A stretch of 4,110 bases of DNA from Escherichia coli (lineage in GTDB: Bacteria; Pseudomonadota; Gammaproteobacteria; Enterobacterales; Enterobacteriaceae). The number at the start of each line of letters is the position of its first letter. The first letter of the stretch is position 1. Of this stretch, positions 1 to 4,110 are shown piece after piece. Below the pieces are notes generated by a model. That model did not search any database, had not been told where the DNA came from, and saw nothing but the letters and a program-made list of their open reading frames with translations. Location: NCBI RefSeq assembly GCF_013315695.1, contig NZ_CP054359.1; one strand, written 5' to 3'. The translations under genes were made by a program, and so were the position numbers.

Positions 1-59
1 CAGGGCACTTACGCGCCGATGCTCAGTTGGTGATAGCCGTTCAACCCGCATGAATACTG

Positions 60-71
60 GTTTTCCACAGG
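60..71 (+). promoter_or_regulatory. DnaA-box-containing 12-bp repeat, copy 1 (GTTTTCCACAGG)
   Basis: TTTTCCACA at 61-69 fits the relaxed DnaA box consensus TTWTNCACA. The same 12-mer recurs at 156-167 and a near copy (GTTATCCACAG) at 352-362. Confidence 0.5.
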
Positions 72-155
72 GTTGAACAGCGTTTTGCCAGTGTCTGCTG
101 TTCTGCTTTTTTGTAACTTGCTGTTTTTCATGGGTTTTTGTTTTGCGCACCCCGA

Positions 156-167
156 GTTTTCCACAGG
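156..167 (+). promoter_or_regulatory. DnaA-box-containing 12-bp repeat, copy 2 (GTTTTCCACAGG)
   Basis: Exact direct repeat of 60-71, 96 bp downstream; contains TTTTCCACA at 157-165. Confidence 0.5.
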
Positions 168-184
168 CTCGCCGTTAAGTTTTT

Positions 185-226
185 AGATCTTGTTTTTAAG
201 ATCTTGTTTTTAATACTTGTTTTCGG
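185..226 (+). repeat. 14-bp tandem direct repeats AGATCTTGTTTTTA (two exact copies plus a degenerate third), AT-rich, each exact copy carrying a GATC site; candidate DNA-unwinding element of oriV
   Basis: Exact copies at 185-198 and 199-212, degenerate copy ATACTTGTTTTCGG at 213-226. GATC at 186-189 and 200-203. Lies in a T-rich stretch just upstream of the iterons. Confidence 0.55.
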
Positions 227-267
227 ACCGAAATTTCTTATGGAATTCAAGGGATTAGATTGCTATA

Positions 268-350
268 GGTGAACATTTCGGGGGTAAAGGTGAACATTTC
301 GGGGGTGGTTAGGTGAACATTTCGGGGGTAAAGGTGAACATTTCGGGGGT
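268..350 (+). repeat. Iteron array of oriV: four direct repeats of GGTGAACATTTCGGGGGT
   Basis: 18-bp core exactly repeated at 268-285, 289-306, 312-329 and 333-350, with alternating spacers AAA and GGTTA (periodicity 21/23/21 bp, about two helical turns). Sits directly upstream of a Rep_3-type initiator gene. Confidence 0.9.
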
Positions 351-352
351 GG

Positions 353-361
353 TTATCCACA
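353..361 (+). promoter_or_regulatory. Consensus DnaA box TTATCCACA adjacent to the last iteron
   Basis: Exact 9-mer match to the high-affinity DnaA box consensus, 2 bp after iteron 4. Confidence 0.65.
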
Positions 362-447
362 GAAAATGGTGAATTAAAAAAAAATGATTGCACCAATTGA
401 TGGGGTGAACTAGTTTTTTTTTAGTTTACTTTAGGTGAGGGTGCTCA
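362..447 (+). promoter_or_regulatory. rep promoter/operator region with partial iteron motifs and ribosome-binding site
   Basis: Partial iteron half-sites GGTGAA (368-373) and GGTGAAC (404-410), plus an imperfect inverted copy TTGCACC (388-394). Possible -35 TTGCAC (389-394) and -10 TAGTTT (411-416), both weak. Shine-Dalgarno-like GAGG at 437-440, 7 nt before the ATG at 448. Confidence 0.4.
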
Positions 448-1149
448 ATGGTTGATTTGATAGCTTACAAATCCAATGCCTTAGTCGAAGCCAGCTACAA
501 GCTCACGTTACAGGAGCAGCGTTTCCTGTTGCTGTGCATTAGTCGATTACAGTCAGGTGTTGATGCTCCTCCACCTGAATTACAAAAGACCATGACTATT
601 ACGGCTGTGGAGTTTTTTAATTCATTTCCTGACATGGGAAGAAACCATGCCGAAGAAAAGTTACAGGAAGCGATCGATCGTCTGTGGGACAGGTCGATCA
701 TTCTTAAGGATGGTGAAAAACGCGAGGAGTTCCGTTGGATCCAGTATCGGGCGCAGTACCTGAAAGGCGAAGCAAAAGTTCAAATAACTTTCGCAGATGC
801 TGTAATGCCGTACTTAACGCAATTAAAAGGGCAATTCACAAAAGTTGTAATTAAAAACATATCTAATTTATCAAAGAGTTATAGCATCAGAATATACGAA
901 ATCCTCCAACAGTTCCGTAACACAGGGGAGCGGATGATTTCTCTAGATGATTTCCGCAGCATGCTACAACTGGAAGATAAATATAAAGATTTCAAGACGT
1001 TAAATAGAGCCCTCATAAAACCGGCAGTGGCGGAACTGAATCAAAAAAGCGATCTGGCCGTAACGGTTGAGACAATCAAGAAGGGGCGCACTGTCGTAGC
1101 CCTGCATTTTCGCTTCAAGGAAGACAAACAGATCAAGATGACGATCTAA
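448..1149 (+). CDS. repA: Iteron-binding plasmid replication initiator, Rep_3 (RepA/RepE/pi-like) family, 233 aa
   Basis: Complete ORF, ATG to TAA (1147-1149). The translation has the hallmarks I recall for Rep_3 initiators such as pPS10 RepA: an N-terminal ...SNALVEASYKLTLQEQRFLLLC... segment and a C-terminal ...YSIRIYEILQQF...ISLDDFRSMLQLEDKY...ELNQKSDL... segment. Located immediately downstream of the cognate iterons. Lower GC than the mob module. Confidence 0.85.
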   Translation: MVDLIAYKSNALVEASYKLTLQEQRFLLLCISRLQSGVDAPPPELQKTMTITAVEFFNSFPDMGRNHAEEKLQEAIDRLWDRSIILKDGEKREEFRWIQYRAQYLKGEAKVQITFADAVMPYLTQLKGQFTKVVIKNISNLSKSYSIRIYEILQQFRNTGERMISLDDFRSMLQLEDKYKDFKTLNRALIKPAVAELNQKSDLAVTVETIKKGRTVVALHFRFKEDKQIKMTI

Positions 1150-1168: not shown

Positions 1169-1194
1169 AAAACGCGCGCTGACGCGTTTTTTTT
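1169..1194 (+). terminator. Rho-independent terminator for rep
   Basis: Perfect 8-bp stem AAAACGCG (1169-1176) / CGCGTTTT (1183-1190) with a 6-nt loop, followed by a further T-run, 8 T in all across 1187-1194. Begins 20 bp after the rep stop codon. Confidence 0.6.
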
Positions 1195-1398: not shown

Positions 1399-3558
1399 TC
1401 ACTGTGACCAACCGCGATCGTGCCTCCTCTCGGTGGCGTGTGTTCGTGCATCTTCCTCGCGCCGCCATTCGTCCCAGGTACGATTAAAACCCAGCGAGCG
1501 GAACAGATGATCCGGCTGTTTTTCTGGTGTATTGACGGCAGCAAAAAGCGGTGCCTCACGGGTTTTCAGATGAAACTCCATAAGTTCCGGTGCAGGTGAT
1601 ATGTGGCTGTCTGCATCGTGATTGACGGCAACACCATACCCTGCATACCGTAACCCCTTGTCCGTCAGCGCACTGATGACCAGATGCCTGTTATCGGCTG
1701 AGGGAACGGCAAACGCGGGATACAGCGTGCCATTAAGCCGGACAACGCCGCCCAGAGAGTCATCCACGCCCATGACCAGCAAAAGCTGAAGCTGGCGGGT
1801 TTCCCGGTCGACAGAACTCATTACCGGCATCAGCGTCGGTGGCAGACGTCCCTGCGTAAAATCCACCTTCCTTGCTGCCAGTGATGGCATGGCTGGCTGG
1901 CGGTCTTCTCCAAGACAGAAAAACTCCGGCCATGTCTTCGGCTGGCGGAGATTGCGGGTATGTTGTGGCCATGTCTGGCAAACCTGCGTCAGCAGTTGCT
2001 CAAAGGTCGCAGAGGAATAAACACGTTGCAGTGGTGGATGTTGACCGATTTCGCTTCGGTCACAGATATAACCACTCCTGTCACGCATTAAATCAACACG
2101 CTCAAAGATTCTGGTGCGGTATTTCTCCAGCTCGTTCCCCCAGAGCGTATATTCTCCGTTCCGGTTGTGAAGCAGAAGGTAACTGGTCATTTCCCCGTTA
2201 CCAGGCATGGGGGCCTCGCCATACCCCGTAACGACTGCTCTCAGTACCCCTGAATCCATAACGGCATTGTCATTTTTCCTGAGCTGCTCCGCTCGTCGCT
2301 CCGCGCGACTACGTTCTGTATCCTCCAGCTCCTTCCGGCGCAATTCCTCTTCACGTTTAAGCAACTGGGCTCTGAGAGCTGCAAGGCCGGATGCCCCCCA
2401 CTGCTGCCACTGTGTTTCAAATTCCGTCTGACTCGCGGGAATGTCCTGTTTCTCCACCTTCCGGTAATGCTGTCGCAATTTTTCCATTTGCTGGCTCAGA
2501 GACTGAATTTTTCCCTGCTCACTACGGTATTCCGGTGCAGCCCATTGCATCAGGGGAATACGGGAAAAACCGGACGAAAACGGCGATGATTTTTTCAGGC
2601 TGGCAGCATGGCTCATCGCTTCCTTTCGTTCGGTGTTCAGCTCTTCCCAGCGTCTGCGCGTCGCCTGCATATCTGTCATCATCGACATGGCATTACTGGT
2701 GAGTTTCCATGCCGCGTTACTGTCCTTCGGCAACGCTTCGATGATGTCACGTAGTGTGTACGAAGTTGCGTTGTCAGGAAGCTCAATATTCAGAAGGTCA
2801 GCCACACGGCGGGCAGGCTCTGTCAGCCCGCTGTTCCTGAGTTCGGTACGGAAAATCTGTATTTCCAGGCTAAGCCTGTTAATCAGACGATTCTGTTCGC
2901 CGCGTTCTGTTTCGATACCGCGTGTTTCCATCGCACAGGCAGACTTTCCGAGGTGAATACCAGGCGTTTTCTCAAGCCCCTGTCGCTCGTATGAACGATG
3001 GTCTATCTCTTCCTGATAACCGGCGTTCGCCAGTGCCCTGTTTGCATGGTCAGCCCATGATGCCCGCCACGTCTCGGCATGTGTCCGGTCGTTCCAGTCC
3101 CTGACCTTTCCACCGAACCCCGCAGGTCCGACAGCCCTCGTGGTCAGCATGATGTGCGCATGGGGATTTGTTTTATCCATGTGATGGAACGCCACATCAG
3201 CAATCATGCCCTGACTGACAAAGTTTTCTCTGACAAAGGCGAGAACGGTTTCCCGTGCGGCATCCTGCGGCAGTTCACGGGGGATGGCGAGTTCAATTTC
3301 CCGCGCAAGTTGTGAGTTCTTCCGACGTTCGGCCTTCTCAACGGCATTCCAGAGTTCGGTACGGTTCGTACACCAGGCAGGGGCGGTGGCGGGGGACAGA
3401 ATCACAGCCTCAGCCACACCGCTTTTGCGGGTGTAGTCGTGAGTCAGTCCGGTACGCTCATCAAGCATTAGTGAACCGGAACGATAGGCAGCAGAAGCAA
3501 CGGCGCTGTAGCCGTTGCTTCTGGAGATGATTTTCATGCTGAGATGATAAATCGCCAT
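1399..3558 (-). CDS. mobA: MOBQ-type mobilization relaxase MobA with C-terminal RepB'-like primase domain (relaxase-primase fusion), 719 aa from the conserved MAIYHL start
   Basis: The N-terminus MAIYHLSMKIISRSNGYSAVASAAY closely matches RSF1010/R1162 MobA (MAIYHLTAKTGSRSGGQSARAKADY), including the catalytic Tyr25 (codon 3484-3486). Histidine-triad metal-binding motif HHMDKTNPHAHIML and conserved WADHANRAL...IDHRS...GLE..PGIHLG are present. A central E/R/Q-rich predicted coiled-coil follows. C-terminal motifs ERVDLMRD, LLLVMGVDDSL and HLFRSLGFNRT resemble RSF1010 RepB' primase segments (ERFDIGVRD, LVLVDDLSEF, HYGRLAGFTNRK) as I recall them. Start chosen at ATG 3558 rather than the ORF-track start at 3663. 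Approximate domains: relaxase 2886..3558, linker 2181..2885, primase-like 1399..2180. Confidence 0.85.
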   Translation of the reverse strand: MAIYHLSMKIISRSNGYSAVASAAYRSGSLMLDERTGLTHDYTRKSGVAEAVILSPATAPAWCTNRTELWNAVEKAERRKNSQLAREIELAIPRELPQDAARETVLAFVRENFVSQGMIADVAFHHMDKTNPHAHIMLTTRAVGPAGFGGKVRDWNDRTHAETWRASWADHANRALANAGYQEEIDHRSYERQGLEKTPGIHLGKSACAMETRGIETERGEQNRLINRLSLEIQIFRTELRNSGLTEPARRVADLLNIELPDNATSYTLRDIIEALPKDSNAAWKLTSNAMSMMTDMQATRRRWEELNTERKEAMSHAASLKKSSPFSSGFSRIPLMQWAAPEYRSEQGKIQSLSQQMEKLRQHYRKVEKQDIPASQTEFETQWQQWGASGLAALRAQLLKREEELRRKELEDTERSRAERRAEQLRKNDNAVMDSGVLRAVVTGYGEAPMPGNGEMTSYLLLHNRNGEYTLWGNELEKYRTRIFERVDLMRDRSGYICDRSEIGQHPPLQRVYSSATFEQLLTQVCQTWPQHTRNLRQPKTWPEFFCLGEDRQPAMPSLAARKVDFTQGRLPPTLMPVMSSVDRETRQLQLLLVMGVDDSLGGVVRLNGTLYPAFAVPSADNRHLVISALTDKGLRYAGYGVAVNHDADSHISPAPELMEFHLKTREAPLFAAVNTPEKQPDHLFRSLGFNRTWDEWRREEDARTHATERRHDRGWSQ

Positions 3559-3735: not shown

Positions 3736-4026
3736 ATGAGCAGAACACTCGAACAGAAAATTGCCGAAGCTGAAGCCAGATTGCAGCGTCTGAAGGCAAA
3801 GAGCCGGAGCCTGGACACAGCGCAGAAGGTCGTTGTAGGTGCTGCATTGCTGGCAAAGGTCAGAAAGCCGGAGGAGGTGCAATTGCGCGCCTGGTTACTC
3901 CAGTTCCTGAAGGCAGAGGTGACACGGCAGGCTGATGTGAGCAGGATACAGCCGTTGATTGACGAACTGAACGCGTTGCCAAAACCCGTCCCCAAAGGCG
4001 TGTCAAAAAACGGCCAGCAGGCGTGA
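3736..4026 (+). CDS. mobC: Mobilization accessory protein MobC-like (relaxosome component), 96 aa
   Basis: Complete ORF, ATG to TGA (4024-4026), with a good RBS. Small protein with an N-terminal charged helix (AEAEARLQRLKAKSR) and the motif KVVVGAALLAKV, resembling RSF1010 MobC (about 94 aa, ...RKVLVGAMILAKV...). Divergent from mobA across the oriT, which is the IncQ arrangement. Confidence 0.7.
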   Translation: MSRTLEQKIAEAEARLQRLKAKSRSLDTAQKVVVGAALLAKVRKPEEVQLRAWLLQFLKAEVTRQADVSRIQPLIDELNALPKPVPKGVSKNGQQA

Positions 4027-4110
4027 ATGCACCATCCGCTCGCCGCAGCCCCAGCGACCGAGCGTTAGCGAGCGAGTGGGCGAGGAAGCGGAAAAGCTGC
4101 TGCACCAAAA

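Follow-up and report, generated by a model that had tools for sequence, protein, structure and literature searches.

pIGWZ12, a 4072 bp Escherichia coli plasmid and the prototype of MOBQ41, was described by Zaleski et al. (2006, 2015; summarised in PMC6856555) as having iterons, an A+T-rich region and DnaA boxes in its origin; it replicates by the theta mode at ~15 copies per chromosome, and its iterons are incompatibility determinants (PMC6856555). How DnaA boxes, 13-mers and IHF generally act in iteron origins has been reviewed (PMC4980987): pSC101 needs IHF between its DnaA box and its iterons; P1 oriR is equipped with DnaA-box arrays on both sides of the unwinding element and iterons, either array being sufficient; and R6K gamma ori, F ori2 and RK2 oriV combine iterons and DnaA boxes with an AT-rich, 13-mer-like unwinding element, R6K also possessing IHF sites. 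In ColE1, n'-pas (ssiA) and an alternative DnaA-dependent DnaB loading site are located downstream of ori, near a DnaA box (PMC3640518; PMC3167613).

Identity of the plasmid and layout of its origin region

In the current work, a stretch of 4110 bp (the window) was analyzed which represents the complete circular E. coli plasmid p.E166-P5, position 1 being an arbitrary cut in the circle and the non-coding region of 531 bp running on to position 4027. p.E166-P5 is 100% identical to NZ_CP032071.1, has 603 related records in PLSDB and belongs to the MOBQ41/pIGWZ12 family (MOB-suite rep_cluster_1778), several of its matches being plasmids entered as MOBQ41 in PMC6856555 (Table S2). MOB-suite assigned no replicon cluster to the p.E166-P5 record. 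A MOBQ4 relaxase (MobA_MobL, 1.7e-70, Pfam) and mobC diverge across oriT on this plasmid of ~4.1 kb, the mob half of which is 88-95% identical to that of pIGWZ12. The rep product is a Rep_3 initiator with the two winged-helix domains typical of iteron theta origins (Pfam WH1, WH2), and it is 84% identical to the Rep of pIGWZ12 over its full length; identity across Rep_3 relatives is 77-85%, with the exception of pCKF (62%), and the closest solved structures retrieved by a PDB sequence search are pPS10 RepA (2e-12), F RepE (1.6e-10) and R6K pi (1.5e-6). An Rfam scan of the whole plasmid (E<=1) found nothing.

Positions 1-447, joined across the junction to 4027-4110, very probably constitute the vegetative origin (oriV) of a Rep_3 plasmid of the pIGWZ12/MOBQ41 family that replicates by the theta mode under iteron control, with the elements in the order pas-like element, distal box, T-rich spacer, proximal box, AT-rich repeats, IHF-like site, iterons, box 3, putative operator/promoter and rep (Table 1). 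The origin was aligned with those of 12 relatives whose iterons differ, including pCKF as well as Serratia and 6.9-kb types (core relatives, n=9). The shared order comprises the distal box (11/12), the proximal box, the GATC repeats, the IHF-like site, the iterons, the third box, a putative half-iteron operator and rep. The sequence-only reading of this DNA had proposed a layout of DnaA boxes, AT-rich repeats, iterons, DnaA box and rep; this is correct and is kept in register across the 12 relatives, and the comparison with related Rep_3 oriV layouts, which it had suggested as a check, returned the same element order in these relatives and, for DnaA box, AT-rich region and iterons, in pSC101.

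Table 1 Features of the origin region of p.E166-P5, in their circular order
Feature	Position	Strand	Basis
pas-like element, ColE1 homologue	4036-4105	+	84% identity over 70 nt to ColE1 1309-1376, same strand
Distal DnaA box TTTTCCACA (61-69), inside first 12-mer GTTTTCCACAGG	60-71	+	consensus scan, repeat
T-rich spacer between boxes	72-155		AT skew -0.5 to -0.78 on + strand
Proximal DnaA box TTTTCCACA (157-165), second 12-mer	156-167	+	consensus scan, alignment
Conserved linker GGCTCGCCGTTAA, proximal box to AT-rich repeats	166-178	+	alignment
Probable DNA unwinding element, three 13/14-nt T-rich repeats GTTTTTA(A)GATCTT	179-223	+	repeats, stability
IHF-like site ATTCAAGGGATTA, one mismatch from WATCAANNNNTTR, between unwinding element and iterons	245-257	+	consensus match
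Four exact 19-nt iterons AGGTGAACATTTCGGGGGT, predicted Rep binding sites	267-350	+	repeats; starts 21, 23 and 21 bp apart
Third DnaA box, consensus TTATCCACA, directly 3' of last iteron	353-361	+	consensus scan
Probable rep promoter/operator	362-447	+	imperfect inverted repeat 369-394 / 404-429, A9 and T9 runs
rep, Rep_3 initiator with WH1 and WH2 domains	448-1149	+	Pfam Rep3_N 1.8e-37, Rep3_C 4e-21 (PF01051)

DnaA boxes, AT-rich repeats and iterons

The 12-mer was found as two exact copies, 96 bp apart, at the very coordinates given by the sequence-only reading, and dinucleotide shuffling of 1-178 produced an exact repeat of at least 12 nt in 6 of 2000 cases (p ~0.003). When the relaxed DnaA-box consensus TTWTNCACA was used to scan the whole 4110-bp plasmid, only three sites were retrieved, these being the distal, proximal and third boxes, all on the + strand, against 0.41 expected, a count of three being reached in 2 of 200 shuffles. 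The consensus box that had been noticed after the iterons is one of these three sites.

Mean pairwise identity over the 12 relatives, pCKF included, is highest at the proximal box (0.97), which is the best-conserved element of the origin, followed by box 3 (0.85), the AT-rich repeats (0.83) and the distal box (0.76), and then by the iterons (0.61) and the spacers (0.51-0.65). The proximal box reads TTATCCACA in most relatives and is separated from the first GATC by a constant 29-30 bp, the linker between them having an identity of 0.83 over all 12 relatives and of 0.94 in the core relatives, while the third box is represented by ATCCACA or ATTCACA at the same place in 12/12. Having the same 12-mer twice is specific to this lineage, most relatives carrying GGATTTCCACAGGG and AGTTATCCACAGGC. 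The distal box is located 206 bp upstream of the iterons, and a box-like 9-mer is present 94-96 bp 5' of the proximal box in 11 of the 12 relatives, pCKF being the one from which it is absent; this 9-mer is ATTTCCACA or GTTTCCACA in E. coli relatives and TTATTCACA in the Serratia and 6.9-kb types. The off-consensus form ATTTCCACA in most E. coli relatives and the absence from pCKF count against the oriV reading, in which the distal box is probably an auxiliary DnaA site.

A 12-nt inverted repeat surrounds the distal box (36-47 / 70-81; z = -2.5 and -3.1). An R6K 'A-site'-like hairpin holding the DnaA box at 36-81 was considered and rejected as a family feature, since the relatives keep only ~5 bp of it and the box is located in the loop rather than in the stem.

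The tandem repeat at 179-223 (period 13/14, 3.4 copies) has the lowest GC content of the non-coding region (25%) and is its least stable duplex, at -41 to -43 kcal per 40 nt compared to a plasmid median of -56. Two of its repeats resemble the 13-mers of oriC (GATCTTGTTTTTA) and include the two GATC sites of the 531-bp non-coding region (186-189 and 200-203). DnaA boxes accompanied by an AT-rich candidate unwinding element with 13-mer-like units are seen in the sequence, in the statistics, in duplex stability and in conservation. The sequence-only reading had placed GATC-containing tandem repeats and a recurring CTTGTTTTT motif between the two 12-mers: the repeats are indeed present, as 13/14-nt units with GATC at 186 and 200, and the motif does recur, but only inside this tandem array, which is located 12 bp downstream of the second 12-mer. 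Between the 12-mers there is a separate T-rich spacer, with a conservation of 79% among the core relatives and of 47-50% relative to distant ones.

The iterons correspond to the arrangement known from such arrays, i.e. direct repeats of ~19-22 bp, about two helical turns apart and next to rep; their sequence varies among relatives, with position and number being kept. No extra iteron-like sites were found elsewhere on the plasmid, an 11-nt TGAACAT-containing repeat at 1345-1369 producing no iteron match at the thresholds used. Perfect IHF matches are present at the corresponding place in pIGWZ12 (AATCAATATGTTA) and pCKF (AATCAATTAGTTA), and IHF may bind at 245-257; the facts that this site is poor in some relatives and has one mismatch here count against the oriV reading. 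The rep promoter presumably lies within 362-447, where the half-iteron motifs GGTGAA (at 368 and 404) and, on the - strand, GGTGCA (389-394) were observed, relatives having their own variants of such motifs between box 3 and rep, and where a Shine-Dalgarno-like GGTGAGG is present 5' of the ATG at 448. A simple sigma-70 promoter and terminator scan of 1-520 found nothing, which is a further point against the oriV reading.

Extent of the origin and competing readings

Positions 150-226 are at least 90% identical in ~400 of the 463 matching plasmids, and 1-460 as a whole is below 80% identity in 391 of 467. The comparison shows the proximal DnaA box and the GATC repeats (150-226) as the apparently invariant heart of the origin, with iterons that seem to diversify into specificity types. 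The core common to all relatives begins at the proximal box, ~110 bp upstream of the iterons; that the oriV reaches at least ~300 bp upstream of the iterons, as had been proposed, goes beyond the evidence. A strict 'cassette' model, in which a shared host-factor module is combined with a swapped Rep/iteron module, is only weakly supported: Rep identity (77-85%, pCKF excepted) is similar to the identity that the core E. coli-type relatives show in the DNA upstream.

Every element is documented here in its presence, statistics and conservation. The mechanism of initiation is most likely that of pSC101, P1, F and R6K, on which all binding and unwinding steps are modelled here. Rep monomers would occupy the four iterons and host DnaA would bind the boxes flanking them. 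Next, a bend introduced by IHF at ~250 would allow DnaA at the proximal box to touch the Rep-iteron complex, and both would then melt 179-223, following which DnaB-DnaC would be loaded on the opened strands by DnaA and/or Rep. Rep dimers would probably repress rep at the inverted half-iterons, and the two GATC sites of the unwinding element could add a modulation by Dam/SeqA.

The alternative that survives best concerns the pas-like element, which is positioned ~65 bp upstream (circularly) of the distal DnaA box. Conservation of the element across the 9 core relatives amounts to 97%, and it was found in over 5000 plasmid records, which cover many replicon types and include plasmids of 1.5 kb. 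Its ColE1 counterpart (1309-1376), which is probably ssiA to judge from the reported position downstream of ori and near the DnaA box, is located 115-180 nt downstream of the ColE1 origin and ~30 nt after the DnaA box TGTGGATAA, and by this resemblance 4036-4105 may function as a pas. It is accordingly conceivable, at odds somewhat lower than even, that the origin is the proximal half only (~156-447), with 4036-155 representing an accessory ColE1-type DnaB-loading/priming module (a PriA-dependent pas and a DnaA box) used for lagging-strand initiation or for complementary-strand synthesis after conjugative entry. The identity to a segment beside the ColE1 DnaA box and the wide distribution of the element speak for such a module, as does the description of n'-pas/ssiA and of DnaA-dependent DnaB loading in that ColE1 neighbourhood (PMC3640518; PMC3167613). 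In addition, pCKF is without pas-like element and distal box, yet keeps the proximal core, and the match is on the + strand, which is predicted to be the transferred one should the relaxase gene be the last to enter the recipient. On the other hand, the Serratia and 6.9-kb relatives lack the pas-like element but possess a distal box (TTATTCACA, located 94 bp upstream), the box thus being conserved on its own and in register with the proximal box. The single-stranded fold of the element is no better than that of shuffles (z from -0.1 to +1.3), the window scoring -0.11 and +0.53; since ColE1 itself scores +1.27 and +1.04, the predictor does not pick out even the reference, and the fold speaks neither for nor against a pas function.

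It is doubtful that initiation depends on Dam, or is sequestered by SeqA, through the GATC sites of the unwinding repeats in the manner of oriC and P1 oriR. Both sites occupy the same register of two oriC-13-mer-like repeats, and both are kept, 13-14 bp apart among relatives, in 11 of the 12 even where neighbouring repeat bases have changed (TTGTTTTT, TTATTTTT, TTTTTTTT); the AT-rich region of pSC101 also begins with GATC. However, they are two sites only, on a plasmid where GATC is not enriched (11 found compared to 15.3 expected), and a GATC cluster well above chance, of the oriC or P1 oriR type, was not observed. Likewise, pCKF has equivalent T-rich repeats from which GATC is absent, the prototype is present at ~15 copies per chromosome (PMC6856555), meaning that it can replicate more than once per cell cycle, and the conservation of GATC may merely reflect the near-invariance of the whole 64-nt block. 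The Dam sensitivity proposed by the sequence-only reading therefore goes beyond the evidence, the conservation of the two GATC sites in 11/12 relatives being suggestive.

A further reading is unlikely: a hybrid origin in which a Rep/iteron core is joined by two borrowed modules that depend on the host, namely a ColE1-type primosome site with a nearby DnaA box and an oriC-like GATC unwinding element under Dam/SeqA. If true, 4036-4105 and 61-69 would serve DnaB loading or conjugative complementary-strand priming, and 179-223 would place a multicopy iteron plasmid under Dam/SeqA control.

For the oriV reading itself, the position of the unwinding element has to be considered, since 362-430, a second AT-rich stretch that contains runs of A9 and T9 and is located 3' of the iterons, between box 3 and rep, comes close to 179-223 in instability and could be the unwinding element instead, with 179-223 then serving, for example, for bending or protein binding. 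This is improbable. The segment 345-463 is the second least stable of the non-coding region (-45 kcal per 40 nt), GC content in the stretch is 28-35% and the consensus box 3 flanks it; it shows, however, the lowest conservation within the origin (identity 0.51) and contains inverted repeats of half-iterons that are lineage-specific and characteristic of rep operators, whereas 179-223 is more unstable, is tandem like known 13-mers, is nearly invariant in the family and is on the same side as the unwinding region of pSC101.

Finally, it is most improbable that the 12-mer repeat is a chance or purely historical duplication without DnaA function, given that the repeat is statistically rare and that the boxes are kept in register while their flanks diverge, even though exact 12-mer identity is confined to this lineage, or that the region codes for a small protein (73-186), a 37-codon frame from TTG which is open in 8/12 relatives and which was rejected because its variable columns (22, 17 and 16 at codon positions 1, 2 and 3) lack a coding signature, because it has no Shine-Dalgarno sequence and because it is lost in 4 relatives.

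Comparison with known systems

The origin of p.E166-P5 is a pSC101/P1-like theta origin of known kind. With pSC101 it shares a Rep_3 initiator and the order of DnaA box (TTATACACAGGG in pSC101), AT-rich region opening with GATC (GATCTATTCTTTTT), direct repeats, inverted repeats and the rep gene (repA). In contrast, the pSC101 Rep is only 24% identical, there are three iterons, the consensus scan identified neither a box after the iterons nor a distal box, and pSC101 has a low copy number and carries a par locus. No nucleotide homology between pSC101 and the origin was detectable (best E-value 0.5), and homology at sequence level was rejected, the resemblance being one of architecture only.

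P1 oriR likewise has DnaA boxes on both sides of the unit formed by unwinding element and iterons. Abeles and Austin reportedly described in 1987 that its AT-rich part contains GATC-bearing repeats and is Dam-dependent. P1 differs in having five GATC heptamers, as opposed to two GATC sites in 13/14-mers here, in encoding a RepA of another family and in being unit-copy. With regard to R6K and F, pi and RepE are among the closest solved homologues of Rep, and R6K gamma ori, F ori2 and RK2 oriV differ from the present origin in how many boxes and iterons they have and in where these are placed; the unwinding element of RK2 is located across the iterons from the DnaA boxes, and TrfA is not a close homologue. 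In the n'-pas (ssiA) region of ColE1/pBR322, as here, a DnaA box is found within ~30-70 bp of the element, yet the ColE1 box is 5' of the element and on the opposite strand, while here it is 3' and on the same strand, and initiation in ColE1 uses RNA II and Pol I instead of Rep and iterons.

Among these systems pIGWZ12 shows the same gene order (mobA, oriT, mobC, oriV, rep), the same origin elements in identical order and spacing, and a 100% identical segment at 160-223, which runs from within the proximal box through the linker and across the GATC repeats. The fourth DnaA box counted by Zaleski for pIGWZ12 had no identified counterpart in p.E166-P5. The distal and proximal boxes, both TTTTCCACA here, are ATTTCCACA and TTATCCACA in pIGWZ12, the perfect consensus of box 3 (TTATCCACA) is replaced by TTATTCACA, and the mobC product is 84 aa in length compared to 96 aa here. 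The iteron is AGGTGAACATTTCGGGGGT here and GGTGGAGGAATTTAAGGT in pIGWZ12 (55% identity over the array), so that incompatibility specificity is probably different. Since the same layout has already been described for this prototype, the finding is correct but ordinary and carries little weight as a discovery: it retrieves a layout known from the literature, in a family of plasmids with a wide distribution across E. coli, Salmonella and Shigella (~600 related PLSDB records). Its practical value is that of a base-level, conservation-backed map of an origin which database records leave unannotated.

Plasmid context and organization of the origin region

By megablast, the window is 100% identical over its full length to a complete circular E. 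coli plasmid, p.E166-P5 (NZ_CP032071.1), from which it differs by a 545-bp rotation. The cut at position 1 is thus arbitrary, and the feature under study (1-447) belongs to a non-coding region that starts at 4027 and ends at 447 on the other side of the junction. Another 603 records proved to be related; most come from E. coli, Salmonella and Shigella, and most are mobilizable plasmids of ≈4.07-4.09 kb. The plasmid carries three genes (see table), and the 96-aa product of the mobC-like ORF has no Pfam match; MobC is 84 aa in most relatives, the longer form being common to the window and the 4091-bp relatives (e.g. CP093115.1 and, according to Table S2 of PMC6856555, pMG828-2). Two convergent terminator-like hairpins with T-runs, at 1169-1190 (+) and 1283-1264 (-) between the stops of rep and mobA, probably end transcription of rep and mobA, respectively. 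An 11-nt tandem repeat (TGAACATAACA, 2.3 copies, 1345-1369) near the mobA 3' end includes an iteron-like TGAACAT and is probably not a Rep site, with no iteron match at three or fewer mismatches.

Judged from its sequence, the feature constitutes the oriV of a theta replicon under iteron control. As noted in the sequence-only reading, the 12-mer GTTTTCCACAGG occurs twice in exact form and a third DnaA box, TTATCCACA, lies beyond the iterons. These three sites, all on the + strand, are the only matches to TTWTNCACA on the whole plasmid (0.41 expected), and a chance origin of the 12-mer repeat was rejected: dinucleotide shuffling of 1-178 gave an exact repeat of this length in just 6 of 2000 trials (p ≈ 0.003). 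The 13/14-nt tandem repeat was also recovered, its two GATC sites starting at 186 and 200; it is located downstream of the second 12-mer and not, as had been proposed, between the two 12-mers, and CTTGTTTTT recurs inside this array and nowhere outside it. Nowhere else in the non-coding region is the GC content as low (25%) or the duplex as unstable as in these repeats, and two of the units are two mismatches away from the oriC 13-mer consensus. GATC is not enriched on the plasmid (11 found versus 15.3 expected).

Between the third box and rep, half-iteron motifs (GGTGAA/GGTGCA) are found at 368-373, 389-394 and 404-409, and the relatives have their own half-iteron variants here. The inverted repeat at this location is probably an autoregulatory operator together with the rep promoter; a consensus scan did not find a sigma-70 promoter.

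Features of the window; identity is the mean pairwise value for the block in the twelve-relative alignment
Feature	Coordinates	Strand	Identity	Remarks
Distal DnaA box (first 12-mer)	60-71	+	0.76	
Proximal DnaA box (second 12-mer)	156-167	+	0.97	
Linker GGCTCGCCGTTAA			0.83	
13/14-nt T-rich tandem repeats	179-223		0.83	
Putative IHF spacer			0.54	
IHF-like site ATTCAAGGGATTA	245-257			one mismatch
Four exact 19-nt iterons	267-350		0.61	
Third DnaA box	353-361	+	0.85	
Candidate promoter/operator			0.51	
Imperfect 26-nt inverted repeat	369-394 / 404-429			A9/T9 runs; between third box and rep
rep	448-1149	+		Pfam Rep3_N, Rep3_C
mobA (MOBQ relaxase gene)	1399-3558	-		
mobC-like ORF	3736-4026	+		
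pas-like element	4036-4105	+		directly after mobC

Conservation among related plasmids

The 545 bp upstream of rep were aligned for twelve relatives, among them the prototype pIGWZ12 (NC_010885.1), pSE11-6, Yersinia pestis pCKF, a 6.9-kb plasmid from E. coli and one from Serratia. All twelve share one order of elements although the iteron sequences differ, except that pCKF lacks the distal box; in the other eleven this box lies 94-96 bp ahead of the proximal one, with the sequence ATTTCCACA or GTTTCCACA in relatives from E. coli and TTATTCACA in the Serratia type. Exact identity of the two 12-mers is a peculiarity of the lineage of the window. The spacing from the proximal box to the first GATC is 29-30 bp in every relative having GATC, and the IHF-like site is perfect at the equivalent place in pIGWZ12 and pCKF. 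Segment 150-226 reaches 90% identity or more in approximately 400 of 463 matching PLSDB records; over the whole of 1-460, identity is below 80% in 391 of 467. The iteron/rep variant of the window reaches at least 99% over 1-460 in only six PLSDB records, and no replicon cluster is assigned to NZ_CP032071.1 (MOB-suite/PLSDB), the relatives being rep_cluster_1778; the plasmid looks like a rare iteron-specificity type inside a common family.

A 12-nt inverted repeat (36-47/70-81, 92% complementary; single-stranded fold z = -2.5 and -3.1) surrounds the distal box and appears to be lineage-specific, because the relatives retain only ≈5 bp of it. A 37-codon frame with a TTG start (73-186, +) and a high content of Phe, Leu and Cys covers the T-rich spacer together with the proximal box. 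Eight of the 12 relatives keep this frame open; it is probably non-coding, because its variable columns (22/17/16 at codon positions 1/2/3) reveal no positional bias and a Shine-Dalgarno sequence is absent. Fragments of the 29-223 module (81% identity) also occur beside an IS5-family element inside large conjugative plasmids (NZ_CP038858.1, a 131-kb IncR plasmid, and NZ_OR095750.1), where they are probably left over from cointegration or insertion.

Proposed mechanism and alternative readings

Rep shares 84% identity with the pIGWZ12 protein; the nearest solved homologues are pPS10 RepA, F RepE and R6K pi. The analysis itself shows the sequence features and their conservation; the binding and melting steps are inferred by analogy with the pPS10, F and R6K systems (reviewed in PMC4980987) and would likely be these: Rep monomers would occupy the four iterons, DnaA would bind the flanking boxes, IHF would bend the spacer, the 179-223 repeats would melt and DnaB would be loaded, with Rep dimers at the inverted half-iterons repressing rep.

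The suggestion that the GATC sites make this origin Dam-sensitive receives modest support: 11 of the 12 relatives retain both sites, also where adjoining bases have changed. Against it stand the number of sites (only two), their absence from pCKF and the multicopy state of the plasmid. The functional origin may, as first proposed, extend ≈300 bp upstream of the iterons; alternatively, the distal half may form an accessory module outside the minimal origin. The AT-rich 362-430 stretch might serve as unwinding element instead of the 179-223 repeats, but it is the least conserved block and resembles an operator.

Comparison with known systems

The pas-like element (≈60-70 nt, CCGCTCGCCGCAGCCCCAGCGACCGAGCGTTAGCGAGCGAGTGGGCGAGGAAGCGGAA), which on the circle shortly precedes position 1, has 84% identity to ColE1 1309-1376. 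In ColE1 this segment follows the RNA II/DNA switch by ≈115-180 nt and the DnaA box by ≈30 nt, a neighbourhood for which n'-pas/ssiA as well as an alternative, DnaA-dependent site of DnaB loading have been described (PMC3167613, PMC3640518). Over 5000 PLSDB records, spanning many replicon types and including 1.5-kb plasmids, contain the element, which is 97% conserved in nine core relatives and absent from the Serratia type and pCKF; single-stranded folding does not discriminate, even for ColE1 itself. The element may possibly serve primosome assembly, for priming of the lagging strand or of the complementary strand in conjugation. If it is functional, the origin region would reach further upstream than previously proposed, or else the element would be a site at which the transferred strand is primed.

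The order of elements in pSC101 is the same as in the window: TTATACACAGGG is followed by GATCTATTCTTTTT, which lies in an AT-rich region, and then by the iterons. There is no nucleotide homology, and Rep is only 24% identical. MOBQ41 plasmids were defined with pIGWZ12 as prototype (Garcillan-Barcia et al. 2019, PMC6856555), and several plasmids matching the window appear in Table S2 of that work, which, citing Zaleski 2006 and 2015, gives the iterons as incompatibility determinants. The layout first read from sequence is thus a correct rediscovery: the feature is real and represents a known kind of origin already described for pIGWZ12, in which 160-223 is identical to the window; the present member differs in iteron sequence and small box variants.
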